The notes: generated from the sequence alone by a model not told the origin. A stretch of 64,000 bases of DNA from Bacilli bacterium (GCA_017404385.1 JAFRCK010000022.1:10674-74673); one strand, 5' to 3'. Positions 24,903 to 44,296 are shown, numbered from the stretch's first letter. Numbers and translations are program-made.

Positions 24903-24903
24903 T

Positions 24904-24932: not shown

Positions 24933-25024
24933 TATCAGTAAACAAGGTATACAAATTGTATACTAACGATTGTAAAATGTGATATAATTTAGTAGAAAGG
25001 TCTAAATAAAAAATGTGTGCTGAT

Positions 25025-26046: not shown

Positions 26047-26055
26047 GAGGTTTTT

Positions 26056-27175: not shown

Positions 27176-27176
27176 T

Positions 27177-28793: not shown

Positions 28794-28819
28794 AGTAGAT
28801 ATTTTTATCTACTTTTTTT
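28794..28819 (+). terminator. rho-independent terminator
   Basis: AGTAGAT-ATTTTT-ATCTACT followed by a T-run. Confidence 0.65.
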
Positions 28820-28847
28820 GTGTTATAATAGGTCTTGGTGATTTTTT

Positions 28848-29717: not shown

Positions 29718-29753
29718 TATTAAAAATGATATAATAAACATAGGAGAATACAT

Positions 29754-30506: not shown

Positions 30507-30520
30507 GTGGGTGTGATTAT

Positions 30521-31216
30521 ATGAAAATTAGTACTTTTAATATACAAAATGATTCTAAAACTTATAAAAGAAAAAAAGTTGATGAATTACATAGTTATAT
30601 AGAAAAAAATAAAATAGATGTATTAGGTCTTCAAGAAGTTTTTCCTAAACTTGATAAAGATATAAAAGATGATTTAGGATATGACTATAAAGTAGAAGGT
30701 AAATTTAGATTTTTATCTAGAATTATTCTAAGAAGAATTAATGAAAAGAATCCAATTATTACTCCTTTAGAAGTAATATCTTCTAAAACTTATCATTTAC
30801 CATCTTTTCCATCATTAACTAAAAGAGTACTAACTCATGTAGTAATTAAATATAGAAATAAAGAAATAAGTATTTATAATACTCATTTAGAAGTATATAT
30901 TCCATCTGTTAAAATAAGACAATTAAATAAGATATATGAAATTATAAAAGATGATAATAGACCTAAAGTCTTAATGGGAGATTTTAATTTAAAAAACAAT
31001 AATAATATTTTTAATGAATTTGTTACAAAGTTAGAGGAACTTGATATTAAAAGAATTCCACTTGATGAAAAAACTTATAAACCATCTAAATATAAAAGAG
31101 AAATAGATCATATTTTTATAAGTAAAGAATTTAAATTAAAAAGTAAAAATGTAATAAAGGATTTAGTTATAAGTGATCATTATCCTGTTTTAATAGATGT
31201 AACTTTTAAGGGATAG
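30521..31216 (+). CDS. endonuclease/exonuclease/phosphatase (EEP) family protein
   Basis: LGLQEV, MGDFN and the C-terminal SDHYPV. Confidence 0.7.
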   Translation: MKISTFNIQNDSKTYKRKKVDELHSYIEKNKIDVLGLQEVFPKLDKDIKDDLGYDYKVEGKFRFLSRIILRRINEKNPIITPLEVISSKTYHLPSFPSLTKRVLTHVVIKYRNKEISIYNTHLEVYIPSVKIRQLNKIYEIIKDDNRPKVLMGDFNLKNNNNIFNEFVTKLEELDIKRIPLDEKTYKPSKYKREIDHIFISKEFKLKSKNVIKDLVISDHYPVLIDVTFKG

Positions 31217-31228
31217 AAAGGAGTTTAT

Positions 31229-31552
31229 ATGAAGAAACTGTTTTTGCCGGTAATTATACTAGCACTAGTATTAATAACTGTTGGATGTGGTAGTAAACCA
31301 AGCATAGTTGGATCATGGGAAAATAAAGAAGATGCTGTTGTTATTACATTTGATAAAAATGGAACTGGTTATACTAAAATAGAAAATAATTATTATGATA
31401 GTTTTATATATACATATAAAGATGGTATTTTAAAAATAAAATATCAAACTATTATGGAAGCAGAATTAAGTTATAAATGTGAAATTACTGAAGATACTTT
31501 AGAAATAAATATAGATAATAAAAAAGTAATATATAAAAGAATAAAAGACTAA
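31229..31552 (+). CDS. small lipoprotein
   Basis: Lipobox LITVGC. Confidence 0.55.
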   Translation: MKKLFLPVIILALVLITVGCGSKPSIVGSWENKEDAVVITFDKNGTGYTKIENNYYDSFIYTYKDGILKIKYQTIMEAELSYKCEITEDTLEINIDNKKVIYKRIKD

Positions 31553-31827
31553 TTATTTAGTCTTTTTAGTTTTAAATATTTTTCATTGTATTCTTTTTTT
31601 AAACCTAATTTATTATTAATTTCTTCATATATTCTTTTATATATATTAAAACTACTAGATTCTACTTTTGATGAAACATAATAATTATTTTTTGTAATAC
31701 AATAAAAGAATACAATTTTATCTAAAACATCTTCAAATACATATAATTTATCTATGTTATTTATATTATGTAAAACAAAATTTCTAAAATCAATTTCTGA
31801 TTTATAAACTATACTATTTAATTTCAT
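31549..31827 (-). CDS. hypothetical protein
   Basis: 92-aa minus-strand ORF convergent with the lipoprotein gene. No motif recognised. Confidence 0.35.
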   Translation of the reverse strand: MKLNSIVYKSEIDFRNFVLHNINNIDKLYVFEDVLDKIVFFYCITKNNYYVSSKVESSSFNIYKRIYEEINNKLGLKKEYNEKYLKLKRLNN

Positions 31828-31886
31828 ATTTAATTATATGTTATAATATAATTAATATTACAAAAAATTATATATAAGGTGTTAAT

Positions 31887-32115
31887 ATGAATGAATTACT
31901 AAATAATATTGATAAGATACATACAACTAAACTAGGTATAGGAAGAATCAAACGTAATGATAATATTTATGATATTGAATATATAAAAAAATAATATTAA
32001 ATAAAAAATCAATTATTAATAAAAAAGGAAAGAATTATTATGTAGAAATAGAAAATATAATAATAACAATTAATTCATATAATTATTGTATTATTACAGT
32101 TCATAGGAGGTAGTA
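31887..32115 (+). pseudogene. decayed DUF3781-like gene
   Basis: MNELLNNIDKIHTTKLGIGRIKRN stops at 31994. A shifted frame continues as KGKNYYVEIENIIITINSYNYCIITVH. Together these resemble the N- and C-terminal halves of DUF3781 proteins, with the middle deleted or frameshifted. Confidence 0.45.
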
Positions 32116-32117
32116 TT

Positions 32118-32663
32118 ATGGAAATGATAGATGTATATAATGAAAATAATGAATTCTTAGGTTATTCAAAAACAAGAGATGAAGTACATGAAGAAAACTT
32201 ATTTCATAGACATGTATCTGCTTGGATAATGAATTATGAAGGTAAAATATTACTCCAACAACGTGCATTCACTAAGAAAAAGAATCCAGGAAAATGGGCA
32301 AAAACTGGTGGACATGTAGATGCTGGTGAATCATGCAATGATGCTTTAAAAAGAGAAATAAAAGAAGAAATAGGATTGAATATAAGTGATATAGAAGAAA
32401 TTAATGTTTTTAAAAGTGAAAATCCTAATTATTTTTCATATAATTATATAGTTTTTACAAATTTAAATGAAGAGGATTTTATATTGCAAAAAGAAGAAGT
32501 TAATTCTGTTAAGTATTATGATATAGAAGAATTAGAGAGTTATAAAAAAGACAATAATAAAGATTTTACTTTTTGTAAATGGAATGTTGATGATTTTTAT
32601 AATCAAATGAATATACTAAAAGAATATAGAAATAAAATAAAAGAACTTGGTCAAAAAAAGTAA
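32118..32663 (+). CDS. Nudix hydrolase
   Basis: Nudix box GGHVDAGESCNDALKREIKEEIG. Confidence 0.8.
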   Translation: MEMIDVYNENNEFLGYSKTRDEVHEENLFHRHVSAWIMNYEGKILLQQRAFTKKKNPGKWAKTGGHVDAGESCNDALKREIKEEIGLNISDIEEINVFKSENPNYFSYNYIVFTNLNEEDFILQKEEVNSVKYYDIEELESYKKDNNKDFTFCKWNVDDFYNQMNILKEYRNKIKELGQKK

Positions 32664-32670
32664 TGACTAA

Positions 32671-32700
32671 AGAATAAGTAGGAGTAATCCTACTTATTCT
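32671..32700 (+). terminator. 13-bp-stem hairpin (no T-run)
   Basis: AGAATAAGTAGGA-GTAA-TCCTACTTATTCT. Its core recurs at 43862-43880. Confidence 0.5.
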
Positions 32701-32739
32701 ATGTTATAATGAATATGGACTTAAAAAGAGGTGAATATA

Positions 32740-35112
32740 TTGGATTTTAAATATGATGCTTTTATAAGTTATAGGCACTGTGATTTAGATAAATTTGTAG
32801 CGGAAAATTTACATAAGATTTTAGAAACTTATGAATTACCTAAAAATGTTAAAGAAAAACTAGGTATAACAGGTAGAACAATTAGAAGAGTATTTAGAGA
32901 TCAGGATGAATTACCATTATCAAGTAATTTAGAAGATCCAATAATTGATTCATTAAAAAATTCTAAATACTTAATAGTTATTTGTTCACCAAGATTAAAA
33001 GATTCTTTATGGTGTAAAAAAGAAATAGAGACTTTTAAAAAACTAAGAGGTAGAAAAAATATATTTTGTGTATTAATTGAAGGTGAACCAAAAGATTCAT
33101 TTCCAGAAGAAGTACTTTATGATGAAGAAGAAAAAATATTAAAAAATGGTAAAAAGAAAAAAGAAAAAGTATTAGTAGAACCACTAGCGGCAGATGTTAG
33201 AGGAGAAACAAAAAAAGATGTATTGAAGAAATTAAAAGAAGAAAAACTTAGATTAATCGCACCAATGTATAATTTAGACTATGATGATTTAAAACAAAGG
33301 CATAAAATAAGAAGACAAAAAAGAATACTAATCATTTCATTAATAGCGGCATCATTTTTATTCTTACTAGCTCTTTATACATCTATTATGCTTATTAAGA
33401 TTAATTCACAAAAGAATACTTTAAGATTACATCAAGCAGAATCACTATCAACTAAATCTAAAGAATCATTAAAAAATGATAATAGATATGATGCGATTAA
33501 TTATTCATATCAAGCTTTAACTGAATTTGATGGAGTTAATATGCCCTATACATCAGAAGCTGAATATGAGTTAGTAGAAAGTTTAGGATTATATGATGTA
33601 GGATCTTCATATAAAAATATTTCTGAATTAAAAACAGATGGAGTTGCGACATTTATTAAAACTAGCGATAATAATGAATATGGTTTAGTATATGATGAAT
33701 CTGAAAAACTAACTTTATTTAATACTAAGACAATGAAAGTTATAGATAACTATGATTTAAATGGAACATTTGATGAAGAATCATTTTCATTCCTGGATAA
33801 TGATAGATTTGCCTATATAAATAAAGAAGGGAATATAAATATTATTTCTATTAAAGATGGTAAATTAATAAAAGAAATAGAAAAGAAAGATGAAAAATAT
33901 AAATCAGTTATAGGTAGTAAAGACTATTTATCATATATAGATAAAAAGAATGTATATGTTTATAATTTAAAAGAAGATAAAGTAGTAGGTAGTATTTCAA
34001 CAAACGATAAATTTATAGATGATTTATATTATTCTGATAATGATGAATATTTATTCGCAACTACTACAGATGATAGTTTTAATGTAGATGAAGAAGACTA
34101 TTTAGAAGTTCATGTAATAGAATTAAAAACTGCTAAAGAAATTAATTCCACTAGAATAGATGCTAGTTATGTATCAGGAATGTTAACTAAAAATGGTAAT
34201 CTTTATATGCTTTTAAATAGATCATATGGTACAGAGTTTAGTATGATTTCGGTATCATATAATTATACTTCTGGTGATACTAATTGGACTAGGATATTCG
34301 AAGGTAATTATGGTAGATTTATAACTAAATCATATCCAGAAGATATTAATCATATTGTAGTAGTTAATTATCAAACTGTTAATATTTTAGATGGTGATTC
34401 TGGAGAAGTAGTAGAAGTCTTTAATTTAGATGATGAAATAATAAATATATATTCAAATCTAAATAAAGAACTTTATCTAGCTTTCTTAAAAAATGGTTCT
34501 GTTAATTATCTAAGCATGGAAAGTAGAAAGAGTTATGAACTTCTAGGTAAATATGAATTTAATATAGATAATTATTCTAAAGTAGCGTTATCTAAAGATG
34601 GATTCTTATTAATACCTAATAATGAAAACAGAGTAGTATTATATGAAACAAAGTCAAATAAAGATATTAAAAGTGTAGATATGAAATTTGATTTTGTTAA
34701 AGATGATTCAATAAAAATAACTGATTATGATAAGATTAAAGAAGAATATGATATAAAAAATAAAAGCTTAGTAGAAAAAATATTTTATGATGATAAAAAA
34801 GAATTATTATTTGTAAATTATACTAATGAAGATTTAGTTATATATAATGTTAAAGATAAAAAACAATTAAACAAAATAGAAAAAATTGGTAAAGTAAATC
34901 ATTATTTTGGAAAAGATAAGTATGGTAGAATCTATATTGGAGATAATTCAAATTCATATATAATAGATAATTATGAAAAAGTAGGACACATAAAAGGATT
35001 AATAAAATTAGAAAAAGATAAAGTATATATTTCTAATGATGAGAAGTTCTATTCTATAAAGATTTATAATTTAAACGAAGTATTAAAAGAAGCCAAAGAT
35101 TATTTAAAATAA
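32740..35112 (+). CDS. TIR-domain protein with TM helix and large C-terminal beta-propeller-like domain
   Basis: N-terminal YDAFISYRH, LIVICSP and SLWCKKEIE (TIR motifs including the conserved Glu context). TM helix ILIISLIAASFLFLLALYTSIMLI at about aa 200. About 570 further residues carry recurring blade-like strands (VYVYNLKEDK, VVLYETKSNK, LVIYNVKDKK). Start is TTG at 32740 or GTG at 32731. Confidence 0.75.
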   Translation: MDFKYDAFISYRHCDLDKFVAENLHKILETYELPKNVKEKLGITGRTIRRVFRDQDELPLSSNLEDPIIDSLKNSKYLIVICSPRLKDSLWCKKEIETFKKLRGRKNIFCVLIEGEPKDSFPEEVLYDEEEKILKNGKKKKEKVLVEPLAADVRGETKKDVLKKLKEEKLRLIAPMYNLDYDDLKQRHKIRRQKRILIISLIAASFLFLLALYTSIMLIKINSQKNTLRLHQAESLSTKSKESLKNDNRYDAINYSYQALTEFDGVNMPYTSEAEYELVESLGLYDVGSSYKNISELKTDGVATFIKTSDNNEYGLVYDESEKLTLFNTKTMKVIDNYDLNGTFDEESFSFLDNDRFAYINKEGNINIISIKDGKLIKEIEKKDEKYKSVIGSKDYLSYIDKKNVYVYNLKEDKVVGSISTNDKFIDDLYYSDNDEYLFATTTDDSFNVDEEDYLEVHVIELKTAKEINSTRIDASYVSGMLTKNGNLYMLLNRSYGTEFSMISVSYNYTSGDTNWTRIFEGNYGRFITKSYPEDINHIVVVNYQTVNILDGDSGEVVEVFNLDDEIINIYSNLNKELYLAFLKNGSVNYLSMESRKSYELLGKYEFNIDNYSKVALSKDGFLLIPNNENRVVLYETKSNKDIKSVDMKFDFVKDDSIKITDYDKIKEEYDIKNKSLVEKIFYDDKKELLFVNYTNEDLVIYNVKDKKQLNKIEKIGKVNHYFGKDKYGRIYIGDNSNSYIIDNYEKVGHIKGLIKLEKDKVYISNDEKFYSIKIYNLNEVLKEAKDYLK

Positions 35113-35125
35113 AAAAGGAGGAAAT

Positions 35126-36100
35126 ATGAAAAAGAGATTTTTAATATTAATTTTATTAATAGTAGGATTATTTACTATAACTGGATGTGGTTGTAGTAAA
35201 AAAACAAATGAAGATACAAAAAATAAAAAGGAAATAATAACACCACTAATGTATAAAGTAACAAAAGAAGGAAGTAGTAATACAATTTATATACTTGGTA
35301 CAATTCATGCCGGAAGTTTAAAAAATACAGAATTTGCTAAATATGTAACTAAAGCATTTGATGAAAGTCATTATGTAGCCGCTGAAATTGACAATGAAGA
35401 AGACGAATCTTTAGATGAAGTTCTTGAACAATTAGAAAAATTCACATATGATGGGGATGATACTATTAAGAATCATATGTCGTCAGAAGAAAATTATAAT
35501 AAACTAATGAAATATGTAGAAGATAATAATTTAGAAATAGAATTAATAGATAAAGAAAAATTAAACTTAGAATACTATTCTAGGTCATTAACACAAGTTG
35601 TTATAGAAAAATCAGGTTTAACTGCTGAAGAAGGAATAGATGAATATTTTGTTAATATGGCTAAAAAAGAAAAAAAGAATTTCTTAGTTGTTGAAGGTAC
35701 TGAATTCCAATCAGAAGTATTAGCTAGTCTATCTGATAAATTTTATGAAAATATGATAATAAGTGCAATTGAAAATTTAGATGAACAAATAAAAGAATTA
35801 AAGGACTCTTTTGAAATTTGGAAAAAGGGTAATGAAAAAGAAATATGGAAAGATGATGGTTCATCAATAAAAGAAGAAGATAAATCTAAATATAGTGAAG
35901 AAGATATTAAGGCAGCAGAAGAATTTGACGAAAAAATATTATATTCTAGAAATATAACTATGACTGATAAATTAGAAGAATACTTTAAAGATAATAAAGA
36001 TGTATTTTATATGGTAGGACAAGATCATGTTATAGGTGATAGAGGAATAGTATCATTATTAAGACAAAGAGGATATACTGTAACAAAAATATCAAAATAA
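35126..36100 (+). CDS. TraB/GumN (TIKI-like) family lipoprotein
   Basis: Lipobox LFTITGC and the family N-terminal motif TIYILGTIHAG. Starts 13 nt after the TIR gene stop. Confidence 0.65.
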   Translation: MKKRFLILILLIVGLFTITGCGCSKKTNEDTKNKKEIITPLMYKVTKEGSSNTIYILGTIHAGSLKNTEFAKYVTKAFDESHYVAAEIDNEEDESLDEVLEQLEKFTYDGDDTIKNHMSSEENYNKLMKYVEDNNLEIELIDKEKLNLEYYSRSLTQVVIEKSGLTAEEGIDEYFVNMAKKEKKNFLVVEGTEFQSEVLASLSDKFYENMIISAIENLDEQIKELKDSFEIWKKGNEKEIWKDDGSSIKEEDKSKYSEEDIKAAEEFDEKILYSRNITMTDKLEEYFKDNKDVFYMVGQDHVIGDRGIVSLLRQRGYTVTKISK

Positions 36101-36104
36101 AAAG

Positions 36105-36129
36105 TTCTAACATTCGTTAGAATTTTTTT
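36105..36129 (+). terminator. rho-independent terminator
   Basis: TTCTAAC-ATTC-GTTAGAA followed by a T-run. Confidence 0.7.
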
Positions 36130-36180
36130 ATTATAAAATATGTTATAATAATCTTAGATTATTAAAAGGAGGAAAATAAT

Positions 36181-36480
36181 ATGTCTAAAGAAAGCGCAAA
36201 AAGTTTTGTTGATAAGTTTTATAATGATGATGAATTTATAAGAGAATTAACTTTAAAAGGTGGAGTTAATTCAAAAGCTAGTGAAGAAGAAAGATCAAAG
36301 TTACTAATGAAGGTTTCAAAGGAAATGGGATTTAATTTCACTGAAGAAGAATATAGTGATGCTGTTAAAAAGTATTTTGAAGGAAAAGGTGTTTGGACTG
36401 CTATAAAAACTTTTAGACATTTTAATAAAATAGCTAAAAAAGCAGAAAAAGAAAGAGAAAAGAATAAAAAGCATAATTAA
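36181..36480 (+). CDS. Nif11-domain-like small protein
   Basis: MSKESAKSFVDKFYNDDEFIRELT ... VSKEMGFNFTEEEY resembles the Nif11 N-terminal domain. Lys-rich tail, no Cys-rich core. Confidence 0.45.
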   Translation: MSKESAKSFVDKFYNDDEFIRELTLKGGVNSKASEEERSKLLMKVSKEMGFNFTEEEYSDAVKKYFEGKGVWTAIKTFRHFNKIAKKAEKEREKNKKHN

Positions 36481-36518: not shown

Positions 36519-36590
36519 AAGATTAATAAAACTAGTATAAACTAGTTGATTATGATACTATGACTAATAAACTTAGGGGGATTATAATAT
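36519..36590 (+). repeat. array repeat R0 (short form, one core)
   Basis: AATAAAACTAGTATAAACTAGTTGATTATGAT matches the family consensus AATAAAACTAATATAAATTGGTTGATTACGAT. Runs into the RBS of the ORF at 36591. Confidence 0.7.
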
Positions 36591-37265
36591 ATGAAGGTAA
36601 TTAAACATGAAGACGAATTTGGATTAAGAGTATCTTTTCAAGAATTAGATAAACAATTTGATGTATCATTTGGTGGTAATTTAGATTTATATTGGACAAT
36701 TCGTTCAAAAAATGAGAATGATAGACATGAATTTATAATCACAAAAGAAAATTATGAAGTATATAGATTGTTTGAAGAATTATTTGATGATATTGAAAAT
36801 ATAAGAATATTTACTGAACCTACTATTCCTTCTTATATAGTAACTGAAGAAGAAAAACAAGATTATATTAAGGAACTAGAATGTGAAAAAAATAAATATA
36901 GATTATATAATTATTCAAATTATAATGAGTTATTTGATAAGGAGAATAGTACTATTACTTGGTATTCAGATGAAACTAATCATGAGGTTTCTAATATACT
37001 AAAAATAATAAAAGAAAAAGAATCTTTTAGATTAGAGTTTTCTATACAAGCACATAAAAGAGAATATGATAGAGATTTTAATTCTTTGAATTATATTCCT
37101 ATTAGATTTAGAAATTCTGGTAGTTCATATGAACCATTTAATGTAATATTTATGAGAATGTATGAAAAAATGAAACAAATTGATGATATTAATGATTATG
37201 GGCATCAAATTCATATTGAAGAATTCTTTTACAATAAAAATAAAACGAAAAAACTAACTAAATAA
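36591..37265 (+). CDS. cassette ORF 1, hypothetical protein
   Basis: 224-aa ORF bounded by R0 and R1. No motif recognised. Confidence 0.5.
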   Translation: MKVIKHEDEFGLRVSFQELDKQFDVSFGGNLDLYWTIRSKNENDRHEFIITKENYEVYRLFEELFDDIENIRIFTEPTIPSYIVTEEEKQDYIKELECEKNKYRLYNYSNYNELFDKENSTITWYSDETNHEVSNILKIIKEKESFRLEFSIQAHKREYDRDFNSLNYIPIRFRNSGSSYEPFNVIFMRMYEKMKQIDDINDYGHQIHIEEFFYNKNKTKKLTK

Positions 37266-37270
37266 TTTAA

Positions 37271-37502
37271 ATGACATATGACCAGGAAACTATATACTAA
37301 TAATTGATTACGGTTTATAGTAACTTTTGTAGAAATCCTTTATTTATAAAGCTTTGTAAAGATTAACATCTTGCATGTTTATACTAAAATATATAAAAAA
37401 TGATGATAATTAGTGAAAATAGAGTGATTTTAAGTAAAATCAGATTAGAAATTGACATAGTGAGAACGGTTAGTTAAGACCAGATGAAAGGAGATGAGAA
37501 TC
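37271..37502 (+). repeat. array repeat R1 (long form, two cores)
   Basis: Degenerate left module. Core TTGATTACGGTT at 37304 and second core GTGAGAACGGTT at 37460 (156 bp apart). Promoter-like module, and hairpin TGATTTT-AAGT-AAAATCA at 37425-37442. Confidence 0.75.
37363..37390 (+). promoter_or_regulatory. promoter-like element inside R1
   Basis: TTAACA-N16-TAAAAT. The same arrangement is found at the same offset in R2 (39292), R5 (41500, with ATAGCA as -35) and R6 (42311). Confidence 0.45.
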
Positions 37503-38540
37503 ATGGCAAATAATTTAGTAATTAGAAGCAGTAGTGCGGAGTTTTTGATATTTGAGAGACAAACACATGATATGGGAATTCAAGTTAGATTTGAAAATGG
37601 AGATTTATGGTTAACTCAAAAAGCTATGAGTGAATTATATGATTGTACTACTGATAATATTTCTTTACATTTAAAAAACATTTATAATGACTACGAACTT
37701 AATAAAAATTCAACTACTGAGGAATTCTCGGTAGTTCAAAAAGAAGGAAATAGAAAAGTAAAAAGAAATATATTATATTATAATTTAGATGCAGTCATTT
37801 CGGTTGGATATAGAGTTAATTCTGATAAAGCAATTCAATTTAGACGATGGGCAACGAATATATTAAAAGAGTTTTCCAAAAAAGGATATATTATTGACAA
37901 ACGAAGAATGGAAAATGGTGCATTTTTTGATGAGGATTATTATGATTCATTATTAGCTGAAATAAGAGAAATTAGATTATCAGAAAGAAGATTCTATCAA
38001 AAGATAACTGATATATATGCTACTAGTATAGATTATGATTCTAAAGCACCAACAACTATTAAATTTTTTAAAAAAGTTCAAAACAAAATGCATTATGCAG
38101 TATCTCATCAAACAGCAGCTGAAATAATATATAATCGTGCTGATTCAGAAAAAGATAATATGGGACTTACATCATGGAAGAATTCTCCAAATGGGAAAAT
38201 TTTAGAAACCGATGTTGTTATTGCTAAAAACTATTTATCTAAAGATGAATTAGAAAGTTTAGAGAGGATAGTTTCTGCATTTTTAGATTTAGCAGAGAAT
38301 AGAGCTAAAAGAAATATTCCAATGACAATGGAAGATTGGTCATCAAGAATTGATAAATATTTACTTGCTGATGATTTGGATATATTAAAAGATGCAGGAA
38401 AAATATCTCATGAAATAGCTTGTGATAAAGCATTATCTGAATTTGAAAAATATAGAATAAAACAGGATAAATTATATAAATCTGATTTTGATTTATTAAT
38501 AGAAGAAGGAATTTCATTTAAAAAAAATGATGAAATTTAA
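37503..38540 (+). CDS. RhuM-family protein
   Basis: VRFENGDLWLTQKAMSELYDCTTDNISLHLKNIY, YNLDAVISVGYRVNSDKAIQFRRWATNILKEF and SERRFYQKITDIYATSIDYD are characteristic of RhuM. The ATG at 37503 is better spaced from AAAGGAG than the ATG at 37494. Confidence 0.8.
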   Translation: MANNLVIRSSSAEFLIFERQTHDMGIQVRFENGDLWLTQKAMSELYDCTTDNISLHLKNIYNDYELNKNSTTEEFSVVQKEGNRKVKRNILYYNLDAVISVGYRVNSDKAIQFRRWATNILKEFSKKGYIIDKRRMENGAFFDEDYYDSLLAEIREIRLSERRFYQKITDIYATSIDYDSKAPTTIKFFKKVQNKMHYAVSHQTAAEIIYNRADSEKDNMGLTSWKNSPNGKILETDVVIAKNYLSKDELESLERIVSAFLDLAENRAKRNIPMTMEDWSSRIDKYLLADDLDILKDAGKISHEIACDKALSEFEKYRIKQDKLYKSDFDLLIEEGISFKKNDEI

Positions 38541-38618
38541 AATTAATTATAAGAATTACTTATAAGTTGAGGTTAAACTAACAAAAATAACTTGTATGTT
38601 GGAGATGATGAAGTAAAT

Positions 38619-39197
38619 ATGATATTGTATGTAACTAAGAAAACTAAAGAGAGATTAAATATTCCTATGATAGATGAATTAAGTGATATATCTAAAAATA
38701 ACGCATCAATAGTTTTAAATAATGAGGAAGACACGGAATTACTTAAATGGGGAATTAAAATCTTTTATATGGATAGAAGAAAATGTTTGCAAGCCGTCAA
38801 TTTTGCTTCAAAACTAACTATATATTTATTTGACATTCATAATGATAGTATTGAATATATTGGTGATGCAATGGCAAATTATATGTATCATATATATGAT
38901 AATGATGAAAAAATGACAAATTTATTAAACAGATTATTTAATGAACATTCACTTTGTGTTTTTTCTAATTTAACAGATAAAACAGCAATTTCAACTTTAA
39001 ATTATAATGAACGTTGCTATGTCAATACATATAGATTTTATGATTACATTGAAAATAATACATTAAAAACAATAGAAATAAATAAAGATGTTAATTTTGA
39101 CAATTTATTAACTGTAAAAATTAATGGTAAAAGAGAATATATAGTTCCAGGTGAATATTTTAAAGAACTATTAACAAATTATTATAAAAGGAGTTGA
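38619..39197 (+). CDS. hypothetical protein sharing a cassette with RhuM
   Basis: No array repeat separates it from the RhuM gene; only 51-78 nt containing the hairpin TTATAAG-AATTA-CTTATAA. Start is ATG at 38619 or TTG at 38592. The stop lies inside the R2 left module. Confidence 0.5.
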   Translation: MILYVTKKTKERLNIPMIDELSDISKNNASIVLNNEEDTELLKWGIKIFYMDRRKCLQAVNFASKLTIYLFDIHNDSIEYIGDAMANYMYHIYDNDEKMTNLLNRLFNEHSLCVFSNLTDKTAISTLNYNERCYVNTYRFYDYIENNTLKTIEINKDVNFDNLLTVKINGKREYIVPGEYFKELLTNYYKRS

Positions 39198-39428
39198 TCC
39201 AAATGAATGAAAGTAAAACTAATATAAATTGGTTGATTACGATTTATTTAACCCCTTTAAGAAATCCTTTATTTACAAGGCTTTTCGAGAATTAACATCT
39301 TACATGTTTTATATAAAAATACTTAAAAATTGATGAAAATTAGTAAAAAAGGCTATTTTTAATTAAAAATAAGGTGGAAATTACTAAGGTGATTACACCT
39401 TTTAACTAGATAAAATGAGGTGATTAGA
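39187..39428 (+). repeat. array repeat R2 (long form)
   Basis: AAAGGAG-N9-ATGAATGAAAGTAAAACTAATATAAATTGGTTGATTAC. Cores at 39233 and 39389 (156 bp apart). TTAACA-N16-TAAAAA at 39292-39319. Palindrome TTTTTAATTAAAAA at 39356-39369. Confidence 0.8.
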
Positions 39429-40121
39429 ATGTATTTATATAAGAAAAATGATAAGTCAATTACTATTTATTCTTTTGTTCCTAATAAAGAAGAATTGATT
39501 AAATTAAAAAAAAGGTATCTAGAAGATATAAAAAGTGTAATTCTTCATATTAATGATAATGACACAGAGGAATTATTGTTTAGTAGTCCAACTATTATGT
39601 TTTATGCTTTAGATAGAAAAGAAACTAATGGTAAGATAACATACATAGAGGAAGAAAAAAATGATAAAAATATTTCTAGGTATATTAATGGAGAATTTGA
39701 TTCTTTAGATCCTTTATGTATTATTGGTGATACGGTTAATAAAAAATCTTCTTATAGTGGCGAATTGTATAATTGTGATAGCGCTTTACTATTTACTGGT
39801 GGTTATTATTACAATAATGAATTTATAACTAATGATGGAATATTATTAACCGGATATTTAGCAGATTTTCAACCATTATTAAGTAGTGATATAAGTAATG
39901 TTCTTTTTCCAGATACTTTTAGATATTTAAGTGATGAAATAATAGATTCCTTAAAAATATTTAGTTGTAAAAAAGAACGCATAATAAAATTGGATGATTT
40001 AAAATTTATGCAAGAACATGGACTAATTCAAATTAATGATAGTCTTCAAGATACTTTTGAAAAAAGTGAAGAAGTTTTAAATAGTTATAATAAAGTTAAA
40101 AAGTTAACTCAAAAAATGTAG
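39429..40121 (+). CDS. cassette ORF, hypothetical protein
   Basis: The ATG at 39429 is 6 nt after GAGGTG. No motif recognised. Confidence 0.5.
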   Translation: MYLYKKNDKSITIYSFVPNKEELIKLKKRYLEDIKSVILHINDNDTEELLFSSPTIMFYALDRKETNGKITYIEEEKNDKNISRYINGEFDSLDPLCIIGDTVNKKSSYSGELYNCDSALLFTGGYYYNNEFITNDGILLTGYLADFQPLLSSDISNVLFPDTFRYLSDEIIDSLKIFSCKKERIIKLDDLKFMQEHGLIQINDSLQDTFEKSEEVLNSYNKVKKLTQKM

Positions 40122-40141
40122 ATATAAAGCAGATGACTATT

Positions 40142-40216
40142 ATGAATGAAAATAAAACTAATATAAATCGGTTGAGAACAATTTAGTCAAGACTAGTTAA
40201 AAAAGAGGTGAATAAC
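40142..40216 (+). repeat. array repeat R3 (short form, one core)
   Basis: ATGAATGAAAATAAAACTAATATAAATCGGTTGAGAACAATTTAGTCAAGAC runs directly into the RBS AGAGGTG. Confidence 0.8.
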
Positions 40217-40840
40217 ATGAGTTTTAAAGAAGAAATAAATGAATTAGAATTATTAAGATTTGAAAGTGATTATATTATAAAAAAAGGGAATCTTCCTATT
40301 CTTTTTACTGCACCTCATACTATGAAACAAATAAGAGAAGATGGTTGTGAAAAATTAAGCGAACCATATACAAAAGCTATAGCTTTATATTTAAATAAGC
40401 ATTTTAATGTTAACTGTATGATTAAAATAAATGATACTGGGTTAGATGCTAATAGAAATCCAAGAGATGAATTTAAAACAGAATTGCTTAGATTTATAAA
40501 AGATAATAATATTAAATTAGTAATAGATCTACATGGTTCAAAAAAATCACGAGACTTTGATATCGAGTTTGGAACACTTAATAATTTATCCGCAGATTTT
40601 TCTACTATAAAAGAATTAGAAGAAGCATTTAATGAAAATGGCATTTCTAATATAATATATAATGACCCTTTTAAAGGAGGCGCTATTACTGAATATGTTT
40701 ATGGTTTAAAAGATGTAGATGTTATTCAAGTAGAAATAAATGGTAGATATAGAGATTATAATAATTTAGAAGAATTAGAAAAACTAATAAAAAGTCTTGA
40801 AAATTTTATAAAACAATATAAAGAATATATAAATAGATAG
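40217..40840 (+). CDS. cassette ORF, possible N-formylglutamate-amidohydrolase-fold protein
   Basis: FTAPHT near the N-terminus and VIDLHGS in the middle loosely resemble FGase-family motifs. Weak call. Confidence 0.3.
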   Translation: MSFKEEINELELLRFESDYIIKKGNLPILFTAPHTMKQIREDGCEKLSEPYTKAIALYLNKHFNVNCMIKINDTGLDANRNPRDEFKTELLRFIKDNNIKLVIDLHGSKKSRDFDIEFGTLNNLSADFSTIKELEEAFNENGISNIIYNDPFKGGAITEYVYGLKDVDVIQVEINGRYRDYNNLEELEKLIKSLENFIKQYKEYINR

Positions 40841-40852
40841 TAAGTGACTTTC

Positions 40853-40926
40853 ATGAACGAAAATAAAACTAATATAAATTGGTTGATAACAATTTAGTCA
40901 AGACCAAGAAAAAATGAGGTGATGTT
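40853..40926 (+). repeat. array repeat R4 (short form, one core)
   Basis: ATGAACGAAAATAAAACTAATATAAATTGGTTGATAACAATTTAGTCAAGACC, then the RBS TGAGGTGA. Confidence 0.8.
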
Positions 40927-41418
40927 ATGATTAAATTATTTGATAGTAATATGAATGAAGTGACTATCAAAAGAGAAATGTATCAATGGGATATTTTTCC
41001 ACTTGACAGCTTTTCCGCTTTCGGGTTTGTTATGAATAGTGAATATTTTCAAACAAGTGAACATGCGTTTCAATATTTAAAGTTTGTTGATACCAATAAA
41101 GAGATAGCTAATAAAATTAAAGAATCATTTTCACCTAATGATGCAAGAAATATTGCTCATGAAAATAAAGAATATAGATTATCTAATTGGTCAGATGTTA
41201 AGTATCAAAATATGGAAAAAATTTTAAGATTAAAAGTAGAACAGAATCCTATTGTAAAAGATGTACTTCTAAATACAAAAGATTATATAATTGTTGAAAA
41301 TTGTATTGATGAAGATACTGATTGGGGATTAGATAGTAATAATCAAGGAGATAATAATTTAGGTAAAATTTGGATGAAAATCCGTGATGATATAAAAGGA
41401 GTTGATCCAAATGAATGA
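40927..41418 (+). CDS. cassette ORF, NADAR (YbiA/DUF1768)-family protein
   Basis: FSAFGFVMNSEYFQTSEHAFQYLKF and the C-terminal NNLGKIWMKIRD match the NADAR domain signature. The stop lies inside the R5 left module. Confidence 0.6.
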   Translation: MIKLFDSNMNEVTIKREMYQWDIFPLDSFSAFGFVMNSEYFQTSEHAFQYLKFVDTNKEIANKIKESFSPNDARNIAHENKEYRLSNWSDVKYQNMEKILRLKVEQNPIVKDVLLNTKDYIIVENCIDEDTDWGLDSNNQGDNNLGKIWMKIRDDIKGVDPNE

Positions 41419-41640
41419 AAATAAAACTAATATAAACTGGTTGATTACAATTAATTTAAACCCCTTTGAAAAGTATTGTAAAATAAGGTAAAACTCAAAA
41501 TAGCATCTTACATGTTTTATATAAAATATGTTAAAATTGATAAAAATTAGTAAAAAATCACTATTTTTAAGTGAAAATAGTATAGGAATTAATAAGGCGA
41601 TTACAGAAGTTAAACCCCCTAGAAATTTGAGGTGAGATTC
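41395..41640 (+). repeat. array repeat R5 (long form)
   Basis: AAAGGAGTTGATCCAAATGAATGAAAATAAAACTAATATAAACTGGTTGATTAC. Cores TTGATTACAATTAATTTAAACCCC at 41441 and GCGATTACAGAAGTTAAACCCC at 41597 (156 bp apart). Hairpin TCACT-N7-AGTGA at 41558-41574. Confidence 0.8.
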
Positions 41641-42207
41641 ATGATATTACAGTATATTGATAATGAAGAATACAAGAATAAGATAGAAAAGTTATATTTA
41701 GAATCTTTTCCAGAAGAAGAAAGATTTCCATTTTGGATATTAGATGAATGTTCTAAAGAAGATAAGTCTGATTTATTAGCTGTATTAGATAATGATAAAT
41801 TTATTGGAATGTGTTATTTAGTTAATTGCAACGAGGTGTATTATCTTATGTATTTAGCAGTTGAACCAGAACTTAGAAGTCAAAATTATGGTTCTCAAAT
41901 ACTAATGGATTTAAAAGACAAATATAAAACATTATTTTTATCCATTGATGAACCTATAGATGATTTAAGTATAAGACGTAAAAACTTTTATTTAAGAAAT
42001 GGATTTTATGATACTAACAAGTATTACGAAGATACAGGTGTTAATTATGAAGTATTATGCACAAATCCTGAATATGAAATAACAAATGATAATATGAAAA
42101 TGAGATATATTAATATGACAAATAATCCTGAATTATCTAATGTAATAGCAAATACATTTAATGCAGATTTTGTTAATTTAAGAGATAAGAATAAACACTT
42201 AAAATAA
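41641..42207 (+). CDS. cassette ORF, GNAT-family N-acetyltransferase
   Basis: LAVEPELRSQNYGSQILMDL (acetyl-CoA binding Q/R-x-x-G-x-G/A) and the later YLRNGF. Confidence 0.65.
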   Translation: MILQYIDNEEYKNKIEKLYLESFPEEERFPFWILDECSKEDKSDLLAVLDNDKFIGMCYLVNCNEVYYLMYLAVEPELRSQNYGSQILMDLKDKYKTLFLSIDEPIDDLSIRRKNFYLRNGFYDTNKYYEDTGVNYEVLCTNPEYEITNDNMKMRYINMTNNPELSNVIANTFNADFVNLRDKNKHLK

Positions 42208-42441
42208 AGGAGTTGAGTGGGATGAATGAAAATAAAACGAATATCAATTGGTTGATTACGGTTTTTCGTAACTTTTGGAGAAAGCCTTTATTTATAAGAC
42301 TTTGTGAGAATTAACATCTTGCATGTTTATGATAAAATATAATAAAAATTGATAAAAGATAGTATAAAAAGACTAAAATAAGTTAAAAAAAGTATAGGAA
42401 TTACGATATTGATTACGCTAGTAAAAGAGGAGTGAAATAAT
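42206..42441 (+). repeat. array repeat R6 (long form)
   Basis: AAAGGAG-N9-ATGAATGAAAATAAAACGAATATCAATTGGTTGATTAC. Cores at 42252 and 42409 (157 bp apart). Confidence 0.8.
42311..42338 (+). promoter_or_regulatory. promoter-like element inside R6
   Basis: TTAACA-N16-TAAAAT with an extended -10 TG (TGATAAAAT). The 30-codon mini-ORF starting at 42222 stops at the TAA inside this -35 hexamer. Confidence 0.45.
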
Positions 42442-43032
42442 ATGAATTATGAAAGGGAAATAACTGTAGAAGTTTGTGTTGATTTAAGCAGTTTAATTAA
42501 AATACTTGAAGAAAATGGCTTTGAATTAAAAGAAGTTTATGATTTAAATGATATATATTTAATTAATAAGAATGATAAGGAAGATGATTACTTATCAATG
42601 TTAAACAAATGTGTTTTAATTAGAGATATTATTGAAGAAGATAAAGAAACTAAATTGTTAACTTATAAATATAAAGAGTATAATGAAAATAAAGAAATTA
42701 CAAAACAAGGAAAAGTAAAAGTAAAAATTGACGATATCAACAATTCTAAATTATTATTTGAAAAATTAGGCTTTGAGGAGTTAATTAGAATAAATGACCA
42801 TATGCTTGTATACGCAACAGATAAAGATGAATTGGTTATTCAAAATGTAAATGGTAAGCATATTTATATTGAATTAGAAGATAAATGTAATTATGCAAAT
42901 AGATTTTATAATTCTATAGATGAGATGAAAAAAGTAATTACTGATAATAATATTCCAATTAAGAATAATGATTTTTTCGTTAAAAAGGCTGAAATTGAAT
43001 TACAAGAAACTTATAATAAAGTAGGTGAATAG
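42442..43032 (+). CDS. cassette ORF, CYTH-like (class IV adenylate cyclase / triphosphate tunnel) protein
   Basis: N-terminal EREITVEV (ExExK-like strand), KHIYIELED near the C-terminus, and a length of about 195 aa fit CYTH/CyaB-like proteins. Moderate-to-weak call. Confidence 0.4.
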   Translation: MNYEREITVEVCVDLSSLIKILEENGFELKEVYDLNDIYLINKNDKEDDYLSMLNKCVLIRDIIEEDKETKLLTYKYKEYNENKEITKQGKVKVKIDDINNSKLLFEKLGFEELIRINDHMLVYATDKDELVIQNVNGKHIYIELEDKCNYANRFYNSIDEMKKVITDNNIPIKNNDFFVKKAEIELQETYNKVGE

Positions 43033-43034
43033 AT

Positions 43035-43300
43035 ATGAATAATGAAGAAAAAAACTTACAAAAAACTAATATAAATTGCTTGAGCATGATTTATCTAACC
43101 CCTTTAACAAATCCTTATAAAACAAGGAAAAACAAGAATTGAATCTTACATTTTTTTATAAAAAATGAGTAAAAATTAACAAAAAACACCAAAAATTATT
43201 AAAAATGGTGCTTTTTTTATATATTTTTAATAAGGTGATGTTTCCAGCTAACCCCATTGAAAAATAAGGGCTTTTTAACTTTTACTGAGTGTTCGGAAAA
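43035..43300 (+). repeat. array repeat R7 (long form, divergent subfamily)
   Basis: AAAACTAATATAAATTGCTTGAGCATGATTTATCTAACCCC. Second core GTGATGTTTCCAGCTAACCCC at 43235 (155 bp on). Hairpin CACCA-N14-TGGTG followed by a T-run at 43187-43218. The sequence after the second core resembles the start of another unit. Confidence 0.65.
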
Positions 43301-43397
43301 TAGTAATATTGCGATGTAATATGATTAATATTAGATTTTCATGATTATATGGTATAATATTATTGATTTATTGCAAATTTTTGATAAGAGGTTTATT

Positions 43398-43832
43398 ATG
43401 GAATATTTGGTTGAAAGTCATTTAGGTGGTTATTATGTTAGTAATTTAGATCCAGAAGTAATAACTGCGTATTGCGAATCTTGTGGTGATTCTGATTGGA
43501 TACTACTGTCTTGGGAAAAAGGACATATGATGGAAACTCTAATTCAATATTTTTCAGAATTAAAACATTCAACGGAGAATATAGAAAAAAACCGACAAGC
43601 AGGAATTACTAAGCAAGAGGCAATTGAAAGTGCTTTGTATGAATATTCTTTTAAAGATAAAAATATAATTGAAGCTCTTTATGAAGAAAAAATTATTTTG
43701 GAAGATGAATATAAACAATTATTAAAAGAAAATCTTCAAGCACAAAAAAATCAAATAACTTTAGTGTGTGAAGTTTATCCAAGAGAAGTCAAAAAAGTAT
43801 TAAAAAAGCAAAAAAAGAAAAATAAGAGATGA
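43398..43832 (+). CDS. cassette ORF, hypothetical protein
   Basis: The ATG at 43398 follows AAGAGG, with its own extended -10 TGGTATAAT at 43350-43358. The upstream ATG in the track (43341) precedes the promoter-like element. Confidence 0.45.
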   Translation: MEYLVESHLGGYYVSNLDPEVITAYCESCGDSDWILLSWEKGHMMETLIQYFSELKHSTENIEKNRQAGITKQEAIESALYEYSFKDKNIIEALYEEKIILEDEYKQLLKENLQAQKNQITLVCEVYPREVKKVLKKQKKKNKR

Positions 43833-43861
43833 TCGTAAGATTAAGATATTACGAACTGATG

Positions 43862-43884
43862 AGTAGGAGAAATCCTACTTTTTG
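43862..43884 (+). terminator. rho-independent terminator
   Basis: AGTAGGA-GAAA-TCCTACT followed by TTTTT. Core matches 32677-32695 at 18 of 19 positions. Confidence 0.7.
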
Positions 43885-43971
43885 TTATATAGTAGAGGCC
43901 ATATGTCCTAACAACTATATCAATATTTTTGATGTTGCAATATCTAATCCAATAAAAATGACTTAAAAATG

Positions 43972-44001
43972 GACGAAGCTATACTAAATTTCGTCTTTTT
44001 T
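43972..44001 (+). terminator. rho-independent terminator
   Basis: GACGAA-N12-TTCGTC followed by TTTTTT. Confidence 0.5.
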
Positions 44002-44021
44002 ATGCTATAATTGATTAGAAA

Positions 44022-44230
44022 TGGAGTGATTCCTATGGATAATAATACTAATATTAATTGTTCGATAGGAAATTAGGCAACATTTTTCGAAAACTCCCAT
44101 AAAATAAGGGTAAAACAGCTATCAAGTAATTACATTTTTTTAATAAAATTTGTAAAAAATAGCAAAAAATACCCAAAAATACCTTAAAAATGGCACAGCA
44201 TTTAAGGGGTGGTGTTCGGACGCAACACTT
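44022..44230 (+). repeat. array repeat R8 (terminal, divergent)
   Basis: GGAGTGATTCCTATGGATAATAATACTAATATTAATTG, then CATAAAATAAGGGTAAAAC and ATTACATTTTTTTAATAAAATTTGTAAAAAATAGCAAAAAATACCC, colinear with R5 and R7. Confidence 0.6.
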
Positions 44231-44246
44231 TAAAAAAGTAATTAAT

Positions 44247-44274
44247 ATCAGATAGTTTTATCTGATTTTTTTTA
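44247..44274 (+). terminator. rho-independent terminator separating the array from the ParB-like gene
   Basis: ATCAGATA-GTTT-TATCTGAT followed by eight T. Confidence 0.7.
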
Positions 44275-44296
44275 TGCAAAAATTTAGGAGGGTTTT

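Follow-up and report, generated by a model that had tools for sequence, protein, structure and literature searches.

The repeats of the analysed DNA are copies of the attachment site at the start of rbgA, the essential gene for ribosome biogenesis GTPase A, and the single genes between them look like small mobile cassettes that were stacked there by a serine recombinase. This integron-like gene-capture system is found in at least 80 uncultured gut and rumen Bacilli species. The window, a stretch of 64,000 nt from a Bacilli bacterium (GCA_017404385.1 JAFRCK010000022.1:10674-74673), contains eight such repeat units and a degenerate ninth (R1). Its features are listed in Table 1, in which related loci are given as L numbers.

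Table 1. Features of the window. All are on the + strand; E-values for R2 to R9 refer to the repeat profile described in the text.
Coordinates	Feature	Observations
17989..19046	rplS (17989-18387) and lepB (18462-19046), chromosomal left flank of the rbgA integration hotspot	tblastn with L19 and signal peptidase of L207: 58% identity at 18031-18363 and 38% at 18600-19034
19095..36480	Older part of the island, co-oriented accessory genes	Pfam: P-type ATPase, ABC transporter, sortase, NUDIX, TIR-WD40, TraB/PrgY, Nif11-like protein; all ORFs on the + strand; no recognisable att repeats and no profile hits; TIR-WD40 homologues lie upstream of arrays in L049, L035, L166 and L085
36519..36590	R1, decayed att copy in short form, no start codon left	Core AAAACTAGTATAAACTAGTT with 2 mismatches; not detected by the profile
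36591..37265	Cassette 1, 224-aa protein	No Pfam family; homologues directly upstream of rbgA in L200, and also in L080, L049 and L064
37266..37493	R2, decayed left arm plus long right arm (promoter module)	Model positions 64-260 only, E 3e-25
37494..39197	Cassette 2, RhuM (37494-38540) plus DUF6933 protein (38619-39197)	Pfam E 6e-108 and 3e-13; stop of the latter lies inside the next repeat
39187..39428	R3, long form	E 5e-50; left arm (SD AAAGGAG, ATG 39203, small ORF MNESKTNINWLIT...), core 39215-39234, right half-site, promoter-like module, second half-site copy, SD of the next gene
39429..40121	Cassette 3	Protein of unknown function
40122..40216	R4, short form	Model positions 11-90, E 8e-15; left arm, core 40154-40173, single right half-site, SD
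40217..40840	Cassette 4, N-formylglutamate amidohydrolase-like	Pfam FGase E 2e-8
40841..40926	R5, short form	Model positions 11-87, E 4e-16; core 40865-40884
40927..41418	Cassette 5, NADAR	Pfam E 2e-23; frame ends ...GVDPNE* inside the next left arm; in L100 and L084 (93-96% identity) homology stops at 41441, core position 18
41395..41640	R6, long form	E 2e-52; core 41423-41442
41641..42207	Cassette 6, GNAT acetyltransferase	Pfam; homologue in L003 has different neighbours
42206..42441	R7, long form	E 2e-40; core 42234-42253, second half-site copy at about 42409-42425
42442..43032	Cassette 7, 196-aa protein	Matches L046 at 94% identity; homology ends at 43078, core position 16
43033..43340	R8, variant left arm (MNNEEKNLQKTNINC...), right arm of the class carried by recombinase-bearing elements	E 1e-29; core 43062-43081; 43062 to about 43320 is 88-91% identical to the left ends of the serine-recombinase elements of L145 and L070
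43341..43832	Cassette 8, 163-aa protein of unknown function	Followed by a terminator-like hairpin at 43861-43880
43884..44296	R9, long left arm with TGCTATAAT promoter-like box and MDNN... start; right arm forms the left end of the conjugative element	E 3e-25; degenerate core 44044-44063; the same junction precedes the same ParB gene in L014, L067 and L008
44297..63087	Conjugation module entered through R9	Pfam: ParB_N protein, thioester/SpaA adhesin, sortase, SSB, pilin, VirB4-like ATPase, M23 peptidase, MobL-type relaxase, coupling protein; no integrase

A sequence-only reading had described nine copies of one repeat family that separate unrelated ORFs, and this observation holds. The 26-mer AAAACTAATATAAATTGGTTGATTAC occurs five times with at most 3 mismatches, at 39215, 40154, 40865, 41423 and 42234, all on the + strand, while none is expected by chance. 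In contrast, TTGATTAC alone is not significant (7 found against 4.6 expected). To test whether the family is confined to this locus, we built an nhmmer profile from 121 units of other genomes, with the window excluded. It hit the 64 kb only at R6, R3, R7, R8, R9, R2 (right arm only), R5 and R4, that is between 37.3 and 44.3 kb, and nothing else was hit on either strand. Since copies in other genomes cluster upstream of rbgA, the repeat is not a genome-wide REP/MITE-type element, a possibility that had been named beforehand as refuting the cassette reading. The two ORFs described as terminating within the repeat do so, with the TGA at 39195-39197 in GGAGTTGA and the TGA at 41416-41418 in AATGAATGA. 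The motif GAGGTGA-N5-ATG, which had been assigned to R2-R5, precedes the ORFs after R3, R4, R5 and R6, but not R2. There are ten ORFs rather than nine, counting RhuM plus its DUF6933 partner. Pfam confirmed RhuM, NADAR, GNAT and an FGase-like amidohydrolase, while the CYTH assignment of cassette 7 was not confirmed.

The conserved left module of the repeat is the Shine-Dalgarno site plus the first 10 codons of rbgA. Intact rbgA genes (L033, L049) begin with MNENKTNINW followed by FPGHMAK, with the same upstream AAGGAGTTGATCCAAATG as the repeat, and variation in the repeat falls at third codon positions (ACN, ATH, AAY). In related contigs identical arrays run directly into an intact rbgA, arrays of 1-6 units abut rbgA in metagenome loci, and in 46 of 249 cassettes the right end is the rbgA junction itself. 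The canonical order, as seen in L207, is rplS-lepB-[island]-rbgA-rnhB. As rplS and lepB lie at 18.0-19.0 kb of the window, everything from 19 kb to beyond 64 kb is one co-oriented island of at least 45 kb, of which the array is only a part, and rbgA is not reached. Neither this nor the small ORF within the repeat had been recognized in the sequence-only reading.

In order to characterize the cassettes, we analysed 249 cassettes. Their median length is 934 bp, 178 of 249 (71%) hold one ORF, 655 ORFs are on the same strand against 17 on the opposite strand, and the distance from stop codon to core is mostly 40-50 nt. Content is highly diverse, as 245 proteins fall into 164 families. Cassettes at 70% identity or more share the upstream neighbour in 0 of 32 comparisons and the downstream neighbour in 4 of 66. 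Conspecific contigs that are at least 98.6% identical downstream of rbgA differ completely upstream, and homology starts 29-50 nt before the core. Gene content is therefore hypervariable between related contigs, although some strain differences in older islands are not bounded by recognisable cores. Linkage switches from the left flank to the right flank between core positions 11 and 17, and BLAST homology of shared cassettes stops at core positions 16-18.

No serine or tyrosine recombinase is encoded in the window, no recombinase was found in 10 kb beyond it, and no rbgA or further att copy follows the conjugation module. However, a large serine recombinase of ~410 aa is found at the rbgA-proximal end of sibling elements in 8 of 9 contexts. 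It lies within 3 kb upstream of rbgA in L070, L137, L149, L107, L207, L208, L211/212 and L213/214, and inside an array in L145, while decayed copies occur in L106, L115 and L208. Most arrays examined have no recombinase in the 8-20 kb of sequence analysed. The elements that carry the gene are bounded by direct repeats of the same family, and their left-end class matches R8 of the window. The protein has Resolvase, Recombinase and Zn_ribbon_recom domains (Pfam), and an AlphaFold model (pLDDT 82) predicts an LSR fold, with full-length serine integrases as top Foldseek hits (E 4e-22). A jackhmmer search of 1721 ORFs from about 200 related loci revealed no tyrosine recombinase in or upstream of any array. 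The only ones found were XerC-like genes 5-7 kb downstream of rbgA, and one further tyrosine recombinase about 8 kb downstream on the opposite strand in L180.

The interpretation given in the sequence-only reading is thus supported in part. A site-specific-looking cassette array with integron-like granularity, repeats that are not attC-like and the lack of a recombinase in the window are supported. The view that the mechanism, if there is one, would differ from known systems is not supported, and neither is the lack of a partner recombinase, considering that the conserved module is the attachment point used by Tn5253-type ICEs in streptococci (PMC6079316, PMC8571831), that a dedicated large serine recombinase family sits next to rbgA, and that tandem accretion by serine recombinases at a conserved gene end occurs in SCCmec.

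Among the alternatives, homologous recombination alone survives best, although we consider it unlikely. In this view the repeats are conserved expression units (a translational-coupling small ORF, a promoter and an SD), and genes are swapped between genomes by RecA-type recombination or gene conversion between these 50-250-nt repeats, without a site-specific step, as proposed for promoter-stem-loop (PeSL) cassettes of T4-type phages. Repeats are 75-90% alike over up to 250 nt. Linkage of the left arm to its upstream ORF decays gradually over about 35 nt rather than in a step, and the right arm is only weakly linked to the downstream ORF. A 157-nt promoter-like module is gained or lost precisely between two direct repeats, with class-matched flanks; the same NADAR cassette carries it in L100 and lacks it in the window (R5). 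A second exchange point exists at the inner half-site copy. These patterns fit a substantial role for homologous recombination or gene conversion, as does the lack of a recombinase in most arrays. However, this view does not explain why the repeat is the rbgA 5' end, why arrays end exactly at rbgA, why a serine recombinase family sits at the rbgA-proximal end, or why short forms with only about 45 + 27 nt of shared sequence still delimit cassettes.

It is doubtful that the cassettes are CIME-like remnants of repeated ICE or IME insertions by a tyrosine integrase encoded at the unseen right end of a Tn5252/Tn5253-like ICE such as the one in the window. In favour of this, Tn5253 integrates at the same position of rbgA, with int/xis at the rbgA-proximal end (PMC6079316, PMC8571831, PMC4701971), and the conjugation module of the window is entered through an att-like junction. 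Related contigs continue beyond this module with AMP-binding, HisKA and defence cargo and no integrase within 10 kb, but the right end of the conjugative element was not reached. The lack of tyrosine recombinases in or upstream of arrays among the 1721 ORFs argues against this view, and the cassettes, with one ORF each, fixed distances and intact arms, are too uniform for random decay remnants. Even less likely, the small ORF (MNENKTNINWLITI and variants) is a leader or signalling peptide that regulates each downstream gene, with a merely secondary similarity to rbgA. A strong SD and ATG are conserved, substitutions follow a wobble pattern, the commonest product is a 14-aa peptide (78 of 214), and a TraB/PrgY gene lies nearby. 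But the peptide is identical to the RbgA N-terminus only up to the exchange point, after which it varies freely in sequence and length (11 to 68 aa), decayed copies (R1, R2, R9) lose the ORF without loss of the downstream gene, and coding-type conservation is explained by selection whenever the arm serves as the real rbgA start. Movement by host XerC/XerD, as for IMEX elements or Acinetobacter pdif modules, is least likely: a XerC-like gene is conserved downstream of rbgA and most cassettes lack their own recombinase, but this position matches ordinary Firmicute synteny near topA (L207), the core on inspection shows only a 9+9 imperfect palindrome and no evident 11-6-11 dif-like site, and a dedicated serine recombinase is associated with the site.

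The array can be compared to several systems. In SCCmec and related cassette chromosomes of staphylococci and enterococci, large serine recombinases insert elements at the end of a conserved housekeeping gene, each insertion regenerates the site, and tandem arrays build up that include recombinase-less elements bounded by direct repeats of the site, carrying resistance or defence cargo (PMC11470126, PMC6222049). Here the target is the 5' end of rbgA and not the 3' end of rlmH, so that the array is not SCC proper. Units are mostly single genes of about 0.9 kb instead of 3-60 kb, the coiled-coil region of the ~410-aa recombinase is reduced to a short helix in the model, and the element must supply an SD and start codon for an essential gene. 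Tn5253/Tn5252-family ICEs use the same gene and position: the duplicated site ends at ..TGGTT of the Trp-Phe codons, includes the upstream region plus about 20 nt of CDS and restores rbgA, and the recombinase gene lies at the rbgA-proximal end (PMC6079316, PMC8571831). They are, however, single large ICEs with a tyrosine integrase plus Xis, and none was found among the ORFs searched here. Integrons share arrays of co-oriented, mostly promoterless single-ORF cassettes of about 0.5-1 kb with boundaries abutting the stop codon, an enormous content dominated by small enzymes such as GNATs, ORF-less promoter cassettes (PMC6557892) and recombinase-less cassettes moved in trans, the latter being inferred for the array. 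But no IntI tyrosine recombinase and, as judged by inspection, no attC hairpins were seen, the sites are double-stranded att junctions copied from a host gene, growth is next to an essential gene rather than next to attI/Pc, and many cassettes carry their own promoter-like module. Tycheposons (10.1101/2020.12.28.424599) and ICE/IME/CIME accretion (e.g., ICESt3) also show tandem accumulation of integrative elements and recombinase-less cargo units flanked by partial copies of the target gene, and neighbours can be mobilised in cis, but these target tRNA genes or the 3' ends of genes, units are larger and less regular, and the hosts are different. PeSL cassettes and pdif modules likewise have short conserved repeats that flank single genes and mediate modular shuffling, but the former act by homologous recombination in phage genomes, the latter use XerC/D and inverted sites, and neither copies the 5' end of a host gene.

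Taken together, we favour with fair but not full confidence the view that the array is a stack of small integrative elements, built by serine-recombinase accretion of mostly recombinase-less cassettes, which works like SCCmec or Tn5253 insertion but has integron-like granularity. In this view each repeat is an att junction. The left arm is the copy of the rbgA start, so that whatever element lies next to rbgA would restore this essential gene. It is followed by an exchange region around AAYTGG and by a right half-site of about 25 nt that belongs to the following element, and many units also carry the 157-nt module, which ends in a second copy of the half-site. The short form keeps only about 45 nt on the left and about 27 nt on the right of the exchange region, which is compatible with the short att sites (about 40-50 bp) of large serine recombinases, and the crossover was mapped by linkage only to core positions 11-17. 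Our data demonstrate the identity of the repeat with the rbgA 5' end, the position of arrays next to rbgA, the statistics and shuffling of cassettes and the association of the recombinase with rbgA, whereas catalysis by this enzyme, mobilisation of cassettes in trans and promoter activity of the module are inferred. Canonical large serine integrases recombine only attP with attB, while here the left half-site is the same in both partners, and the classical directionality logic does not apply directly. Because the left arm of the element mimics the chromosomal one, each insertion would regenerate a usable site next to rbgA, and elements could then pile up, all in one orientation. The single-gene cassettes, which have no recombinase, may be moved, deleted and reassorted in trans by the serine recombinase, with a contribution of homologous recombination between the repeats, and may travel between species in cis with the conjugative element that occupies the same site.

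To examine whether the repeats that separate the cassettes form one family, and whether this family is confined to the array, we combined motif counts, alignment and profile searches. The 26-nt core occurs five times with at most 3 mismatches, while zero occurrences are expected. Alignment of the nine intergenic units (R1–R9) revealed a single family with long (about 230 nt) and short (about 90 nt) forms. A profile HMM built from 121 units of other genomes, leaving out the window, detected R2–R9 and nothing else in the 64 kb on either strand (E-values from 2e-52 to 8e-15), while R1 is a decayed copy that was seen only as a core with 2 mismatches. TTGATTAC as a core is not significant on its own, and is part of one class of right half-site. 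The two ORF ends that the sequence-only reading had placed inside the repeat are correct. Of the cassette products named there, Pfam confirmed RhuM, the FGase-like protein, NADAR and GNAT, and it also assigned DUF6933, but it did not confirm CYTH. The observation of a repeat-bounded array is thus confirmed. A megablast search of the array against plasmids and phages gave no match, and Rfam found nothing in the window.

The left module of the repeat consists of AAAGGAG-N9-ATG followed by codons for MNENKTNINW. The pattern AAAACNAATATNAAYYGGTTGA hit more than 119 stretches in species-representative genomes, almost all of them rumen or gut MAGs labelled Bacilli, Erysipelotrichaceae, Tenericutes or Bacillales, and many of these hold several copies per 8 kb. 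At least about 83 distinct assemblies carry units of the family type. AT-rich array contigs of this family are also binned into MAGs of unrelated phyla, namely the related contigs L027, L031, L082 and L083 (Muribaculaceae) and L101 (Actinomycetes) (here and below, L numbers designate related loci), which most likely reflects binning errors caused by mobile DNA. The free positions in the pattern are third codon positions and take all synonymous values. Translation from the ATG gives mostly a 14-aa product (78 of 214), but in two loci it gives a full-length protein, MNENKTNINWFPGHMAKTKRE..., the ribosome biogenesis GTPase RbgA/YlqF. The conserved module is therefore the ribosome-binding site plus the first 10 codons of rbgA, and in array copies the frame runs into foreign sequence after the Trp codon and soon stops.

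RbgA proteins of the loci L126–L205, L207, L208, L211 and L213 that are only 57–65% identical overall mostly keep the N-terminal extension MNENKTNIN, and other variants (M..EEK.F.K[TS].IN) resemble the left arms seen next to recombinase-bearing elements. This suggests that mobile elements repeatedly overwrite the start of this essential gene, although our test of conservation of the rbgA 5′ end against the rest of the gene is biased by the selection of the loci and is not used as evidence.

In 80 metagenomic rbgA loci, 1–6 units lie directly upstream of rbgA in many contigs, and of 249 core-to-core cassettes 46 end at the rbgA junction itself. The canonical neighbourhood, as seen in L207, is rplS-lepB-[island]-rbgA-rnhB. 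The window contains rplS and lepB after housekeeping genes such as tyrS, trmD and trpS. Everything from about 19 kb to the end of the window is therefore the island, and all of it is on the + strand. The distance between lepB and rbgA in other contigs is 2.2–9.7 kb or more than 10 kb, and the interval is never empty. Neither rbgA nor another att copy appears in the window or in the 10 kb beyond it (L124), and no integrase was found in these 10 kb either. The homologous elements L209 and L210 show only cargo, and no cargo gene of these elements lies upstream of rbgA in the 80 rbgA loci. The features of the island and its surroundings are listed in the table.

Coordinates of features in the window and in related loci
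Locus	Position	Feature	Observation
Window	8902-10140 and 15831-16871	Two class I Trp/Tyr-type tRNA synthetase genes	Within 7 kb; one with the TyrRS C-terminal and S4 domains, one of TrpRS size
Window	12404-13528	374-aa protein of the mTERF family	PF02536, E 1e-36; family mainly known from organelles, unusual for a bacterium
Window	14735-15829	TrmD gene, product of 364 aa	tRNA_m1G_MT domain covers only residues 24-217, leaving an unassigned C-terminal extension of about 150 aa
Window	18031-18363	rplS	
Window	18600-19034	lepB	
Window	19-36.5 kb	Accessory genes	No recognisable repeats
Window	32731-35112	793-aa TIR plus WD40/beta-propeller protein	Homologues at 47-61% identity recur upstream of rbgA arrays in L049, L035, L166 and L085
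Window	35126-36100	TraB/PrgY-family gene	Follows the TIR-WD40 gene
Window	36181-36480	Nif11-like gene	Follows the TIR-WD40 gene
Window	36.5-44.3 kb	Repeat-bounded array	
Window	39232-39410, 41440-41610, 42251-42425	Segments within long repeat units	Two class-matched direct copies of the half-site
Window	41441	NADAR cassette	End of homology with relatives
Window	43078	Cassette 7	End of homology with relatives
Window	44297-63087	Conjugation module	Followed by variable cargo
L070	7564	Stop of the serine recombinase gene	
L070	7658	rbgA junction	
L206	8421-9905	Reverse-transcriptase (RVT_1) gene	Next to the serine recombinase; may be a retron-type or other defence system
L210	11264-12301	Reverse-transcriptase (RVT_1) gene	In the cargo of the conjugative element; may be a retron-type or other defence system

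The conjugation module is conserved at 87–98% protein identity (coupling protein) across many gut and rumen assemblies (L008, L014, L067, L209, L210). The cargo that follows it comprises an AMP-binding enzyme plus a HisKA-receiver hybrid in the window's element and in L209, type I restriction-modification in L209, and reverse transcriptase plus AAA_5 in L210. No integrase was found within 10 kb.

We next determined the properties of the 249 cassettes. Their median length is 934 bp, 178 have one ORF of at least 50 aa, and 44 have two. The distance from the core to the first start codon is bimodal, with 30–50 nt or 180–210 nt, while the last stop lies mostly 40–50 nt before the next core and often inside the left arm, which gives the recurrent ...GVDPNE* ends. 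ORFs on the array strand outnumber those on the opposite strand by 655 to 17. In total, 245 cassette proteins fall into 164 clusters at 30% identity, 118 of them singletons. Pfam analysis of 150 cluster representatives assigned GNAT (13), NUDIX (5), methyltransferases (4), AAA_18 kinases (4), peptidase S51 (3), Bro-N (3), and two each of RhuM, SDR, deaminase, APH, ASCH and UDG. Cassettes with 70% identity or more in different loci share the upstream neighbour in 0 of 32 comparisons and the downstream neighbour in 4 of 66. Contigs that are at least 98.6% identical downstream of rbgA can be entirely different upstream, with homology starting 29–50 nt before the core (L167/L183, L143/L149). In older islands (L143/L144), however, strain differences are not bounded by recognisable cores. 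A generic genome-wide intergenic repeat unrelated to gene boundaries, or a gene content that is invariant across related strains with no partner recombinase anywhere, had been named in advance as grounds for rejecting the array, and both conditions therefore fail.

To map the exchange points, we analysed linkage in 327 array units. Positions at or left of −1 are linked to the left flank, positions +5 to +11 are weakly linked to it, position +14 is linked to neither side, and positions from +17 onward are linked to the right arm. Homology between window cassettes and their relatives stops at core positions 16–18. The excess identity of left arms that follow the same ORF decays gradually from −35 to 0, and the right arm is only weakly tied to its ORF. 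Gene conversion or homologous exchange among repeats is therefore also at work.

The long form of the repeat holds a second site. Every long right arm begins with a half-site of about 25 nt, for example TGGTTGATAACAATTTAGTCAAGACCA, and carries a class-matched second copy 157–158 nt (15 helical turns) further on, just before the SD of the cassette gene. The self score is 10.5 against 7.4 for random pairs (p 7e-40), and the spacing is very tight. This arrangement is found in the window and in L100, L070, L060, L009, L109 and other loci, while short forms contain exactly one copy. For the same cassette in different genomes, homology starts either at the core or at the inner copy, and long and short versions differ by precisely this segment of 156–157 nt. 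The segment contains a conserved, promoter-like TTAACA-16/17-TAAAAT box and, by inspection of the sequence, a small hairpin with compensatory changes. A consensus promoter scan is uninformative at 25% G+C (62 hits against 74.5 expected), and only the conserved position of the box in R2, R3 and R7 is suggestive. We read the segment as a putative ORF-less promoter cassette, or as a module gained and lost between direct repeats, or it may be an accessory or looping site.

No recombinase is encoded in the window. A simple motif search for recombinases in the first 94 loci found none, but the later phmmer and jackhmmer searches were decisive. In related loci a protein of 400–415 aa with Resolvase, Recombinase and Zn_ribbon_recom domains lies at the rbgA-proximal end of the last element, namely in L070, L137, L149, L107, L207 (45 nt before rbgA), L208, L211/212 (15 nt before rbgA, only 43% identical to the query) and L213/214 (three genes before rbgA). 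It lies inside an array in L145, is a pseudogene in L106, L115, L070 and L208, and lies elsewhere in L206. Its elements (2.8–9 kb) are bounded by units of the same family, and the left-end class of the L145 and L070 elements is 88–91% identical to R8 of the window. The AlphaFold model (pLDDT 82) shows the three domains of a large serine recombinase, but predicts only a 15-residue helix (357–371) where phage integrases of 490–600 aa have their coiled-coil. A jackhmmer search for tyrosine recombinases over 1721 ORFs found only XerC-like genes 5–7 kb downstream of rbgA on the same strand (L132, L136, L141, L143, L144, L149, L167, L183, L187), plus one further tyrosine recombinase about 8 kb downstream on the opposite strand in L180. 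The XerC-like genes probably reflect ordinary synteny near topA, but they are the only tyrosine recombinase class near the arrays.

Considering these data, we propose that integration occurs at a site of roughly 50 bp that spans the rbgA start. In this model the left arm of the element mimics the chromosomal one, so that it restores rbgA and recreates an insertion site next to it, and internal junctions are all of the element type. Recombination between an internal junction and the rbgA-proximal site would excise blocks as circles. While the repeat structure, the cassette statistics and the position of the recombinase genes are results of our sequence analysis, recombination by this enzyme and the dependence of recombinase-less cassettes on it in trans are inferred. 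The conjugative element enters through the same kind of junction, R9 in the window and likewise in L008, L014 and L067, and could carry adjacent cassettes in cis. A serine integrase with identical left half-sites in both partners does not fit the classical attP/attB rule (PMC12286644). The reduced coiled-coil may be relevant here, but this is speculation. The view of the sequence-only reading, that this is a site-specific cassette-capture array comparable to integron arrays, is thus supported in part.

The attachment point is that of Tn5253, with a duplicated site ending ..TGGTT that is made of the upstream region plus 20 nt of CDS (PMC6079316, PMC8571831), but Tn5253 uses a tyrosine integrase. 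The accretion logic is that of SCCmec, and the granularity and content are those of integrons. In the literature searched, which was not complete, no paper described serine-recombinase cassette arrays at rbgA. Among other explanations, the small ORF as a leader peptide remains only a minor alternative. A leading-region anti-defence island with single-stranded (Frpo-like) promoters was dropped once the repeat proved to be the rbgA 5′ end and the locus proved chromosomal.

A further-reaching reading is possible, but we consider it somewhat less likely than not. In this view the system is a true functional analogue of the integron in AT-rich Bacilli and Mollicutes-like gut and rumen bacteria, in which a compact large serine recombinase without the usual coiled-coil directionality switch captures, excises and reorders hundreds of recombinase-less single-gene cassettes, and also handles separate 157-nt ORF-less promoter cassettes. 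All of this would happen at a site that doubles as the translation start of the essential gene rbgA, and arrays would be exported between species by a conjugative element that uses the same site.

At least 80 species-level genomes from rumen and gut carry the system, and their cassette pool is rich in acetyltransferases, NUDIX hydrolases, methyltransferases, kinases and phosphotransferases, that is, resistance-like and defence-like functions. The proposed mechanism would explain why the first codons of rbgA are so uniform in these bacteria. The system offers a compact predicted serine recombinase with short natural sites and perhaps with no directionality control, and a concrete case for asking how promoterless cassettes are generated and expressed. 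It also links cassette arrays physically to a conjugative element that could spread them. Integron-type gene capture is considered essentially absent from Bacillota, and this locus suggests that an unrelated enzyme class has produced the same architecture there.
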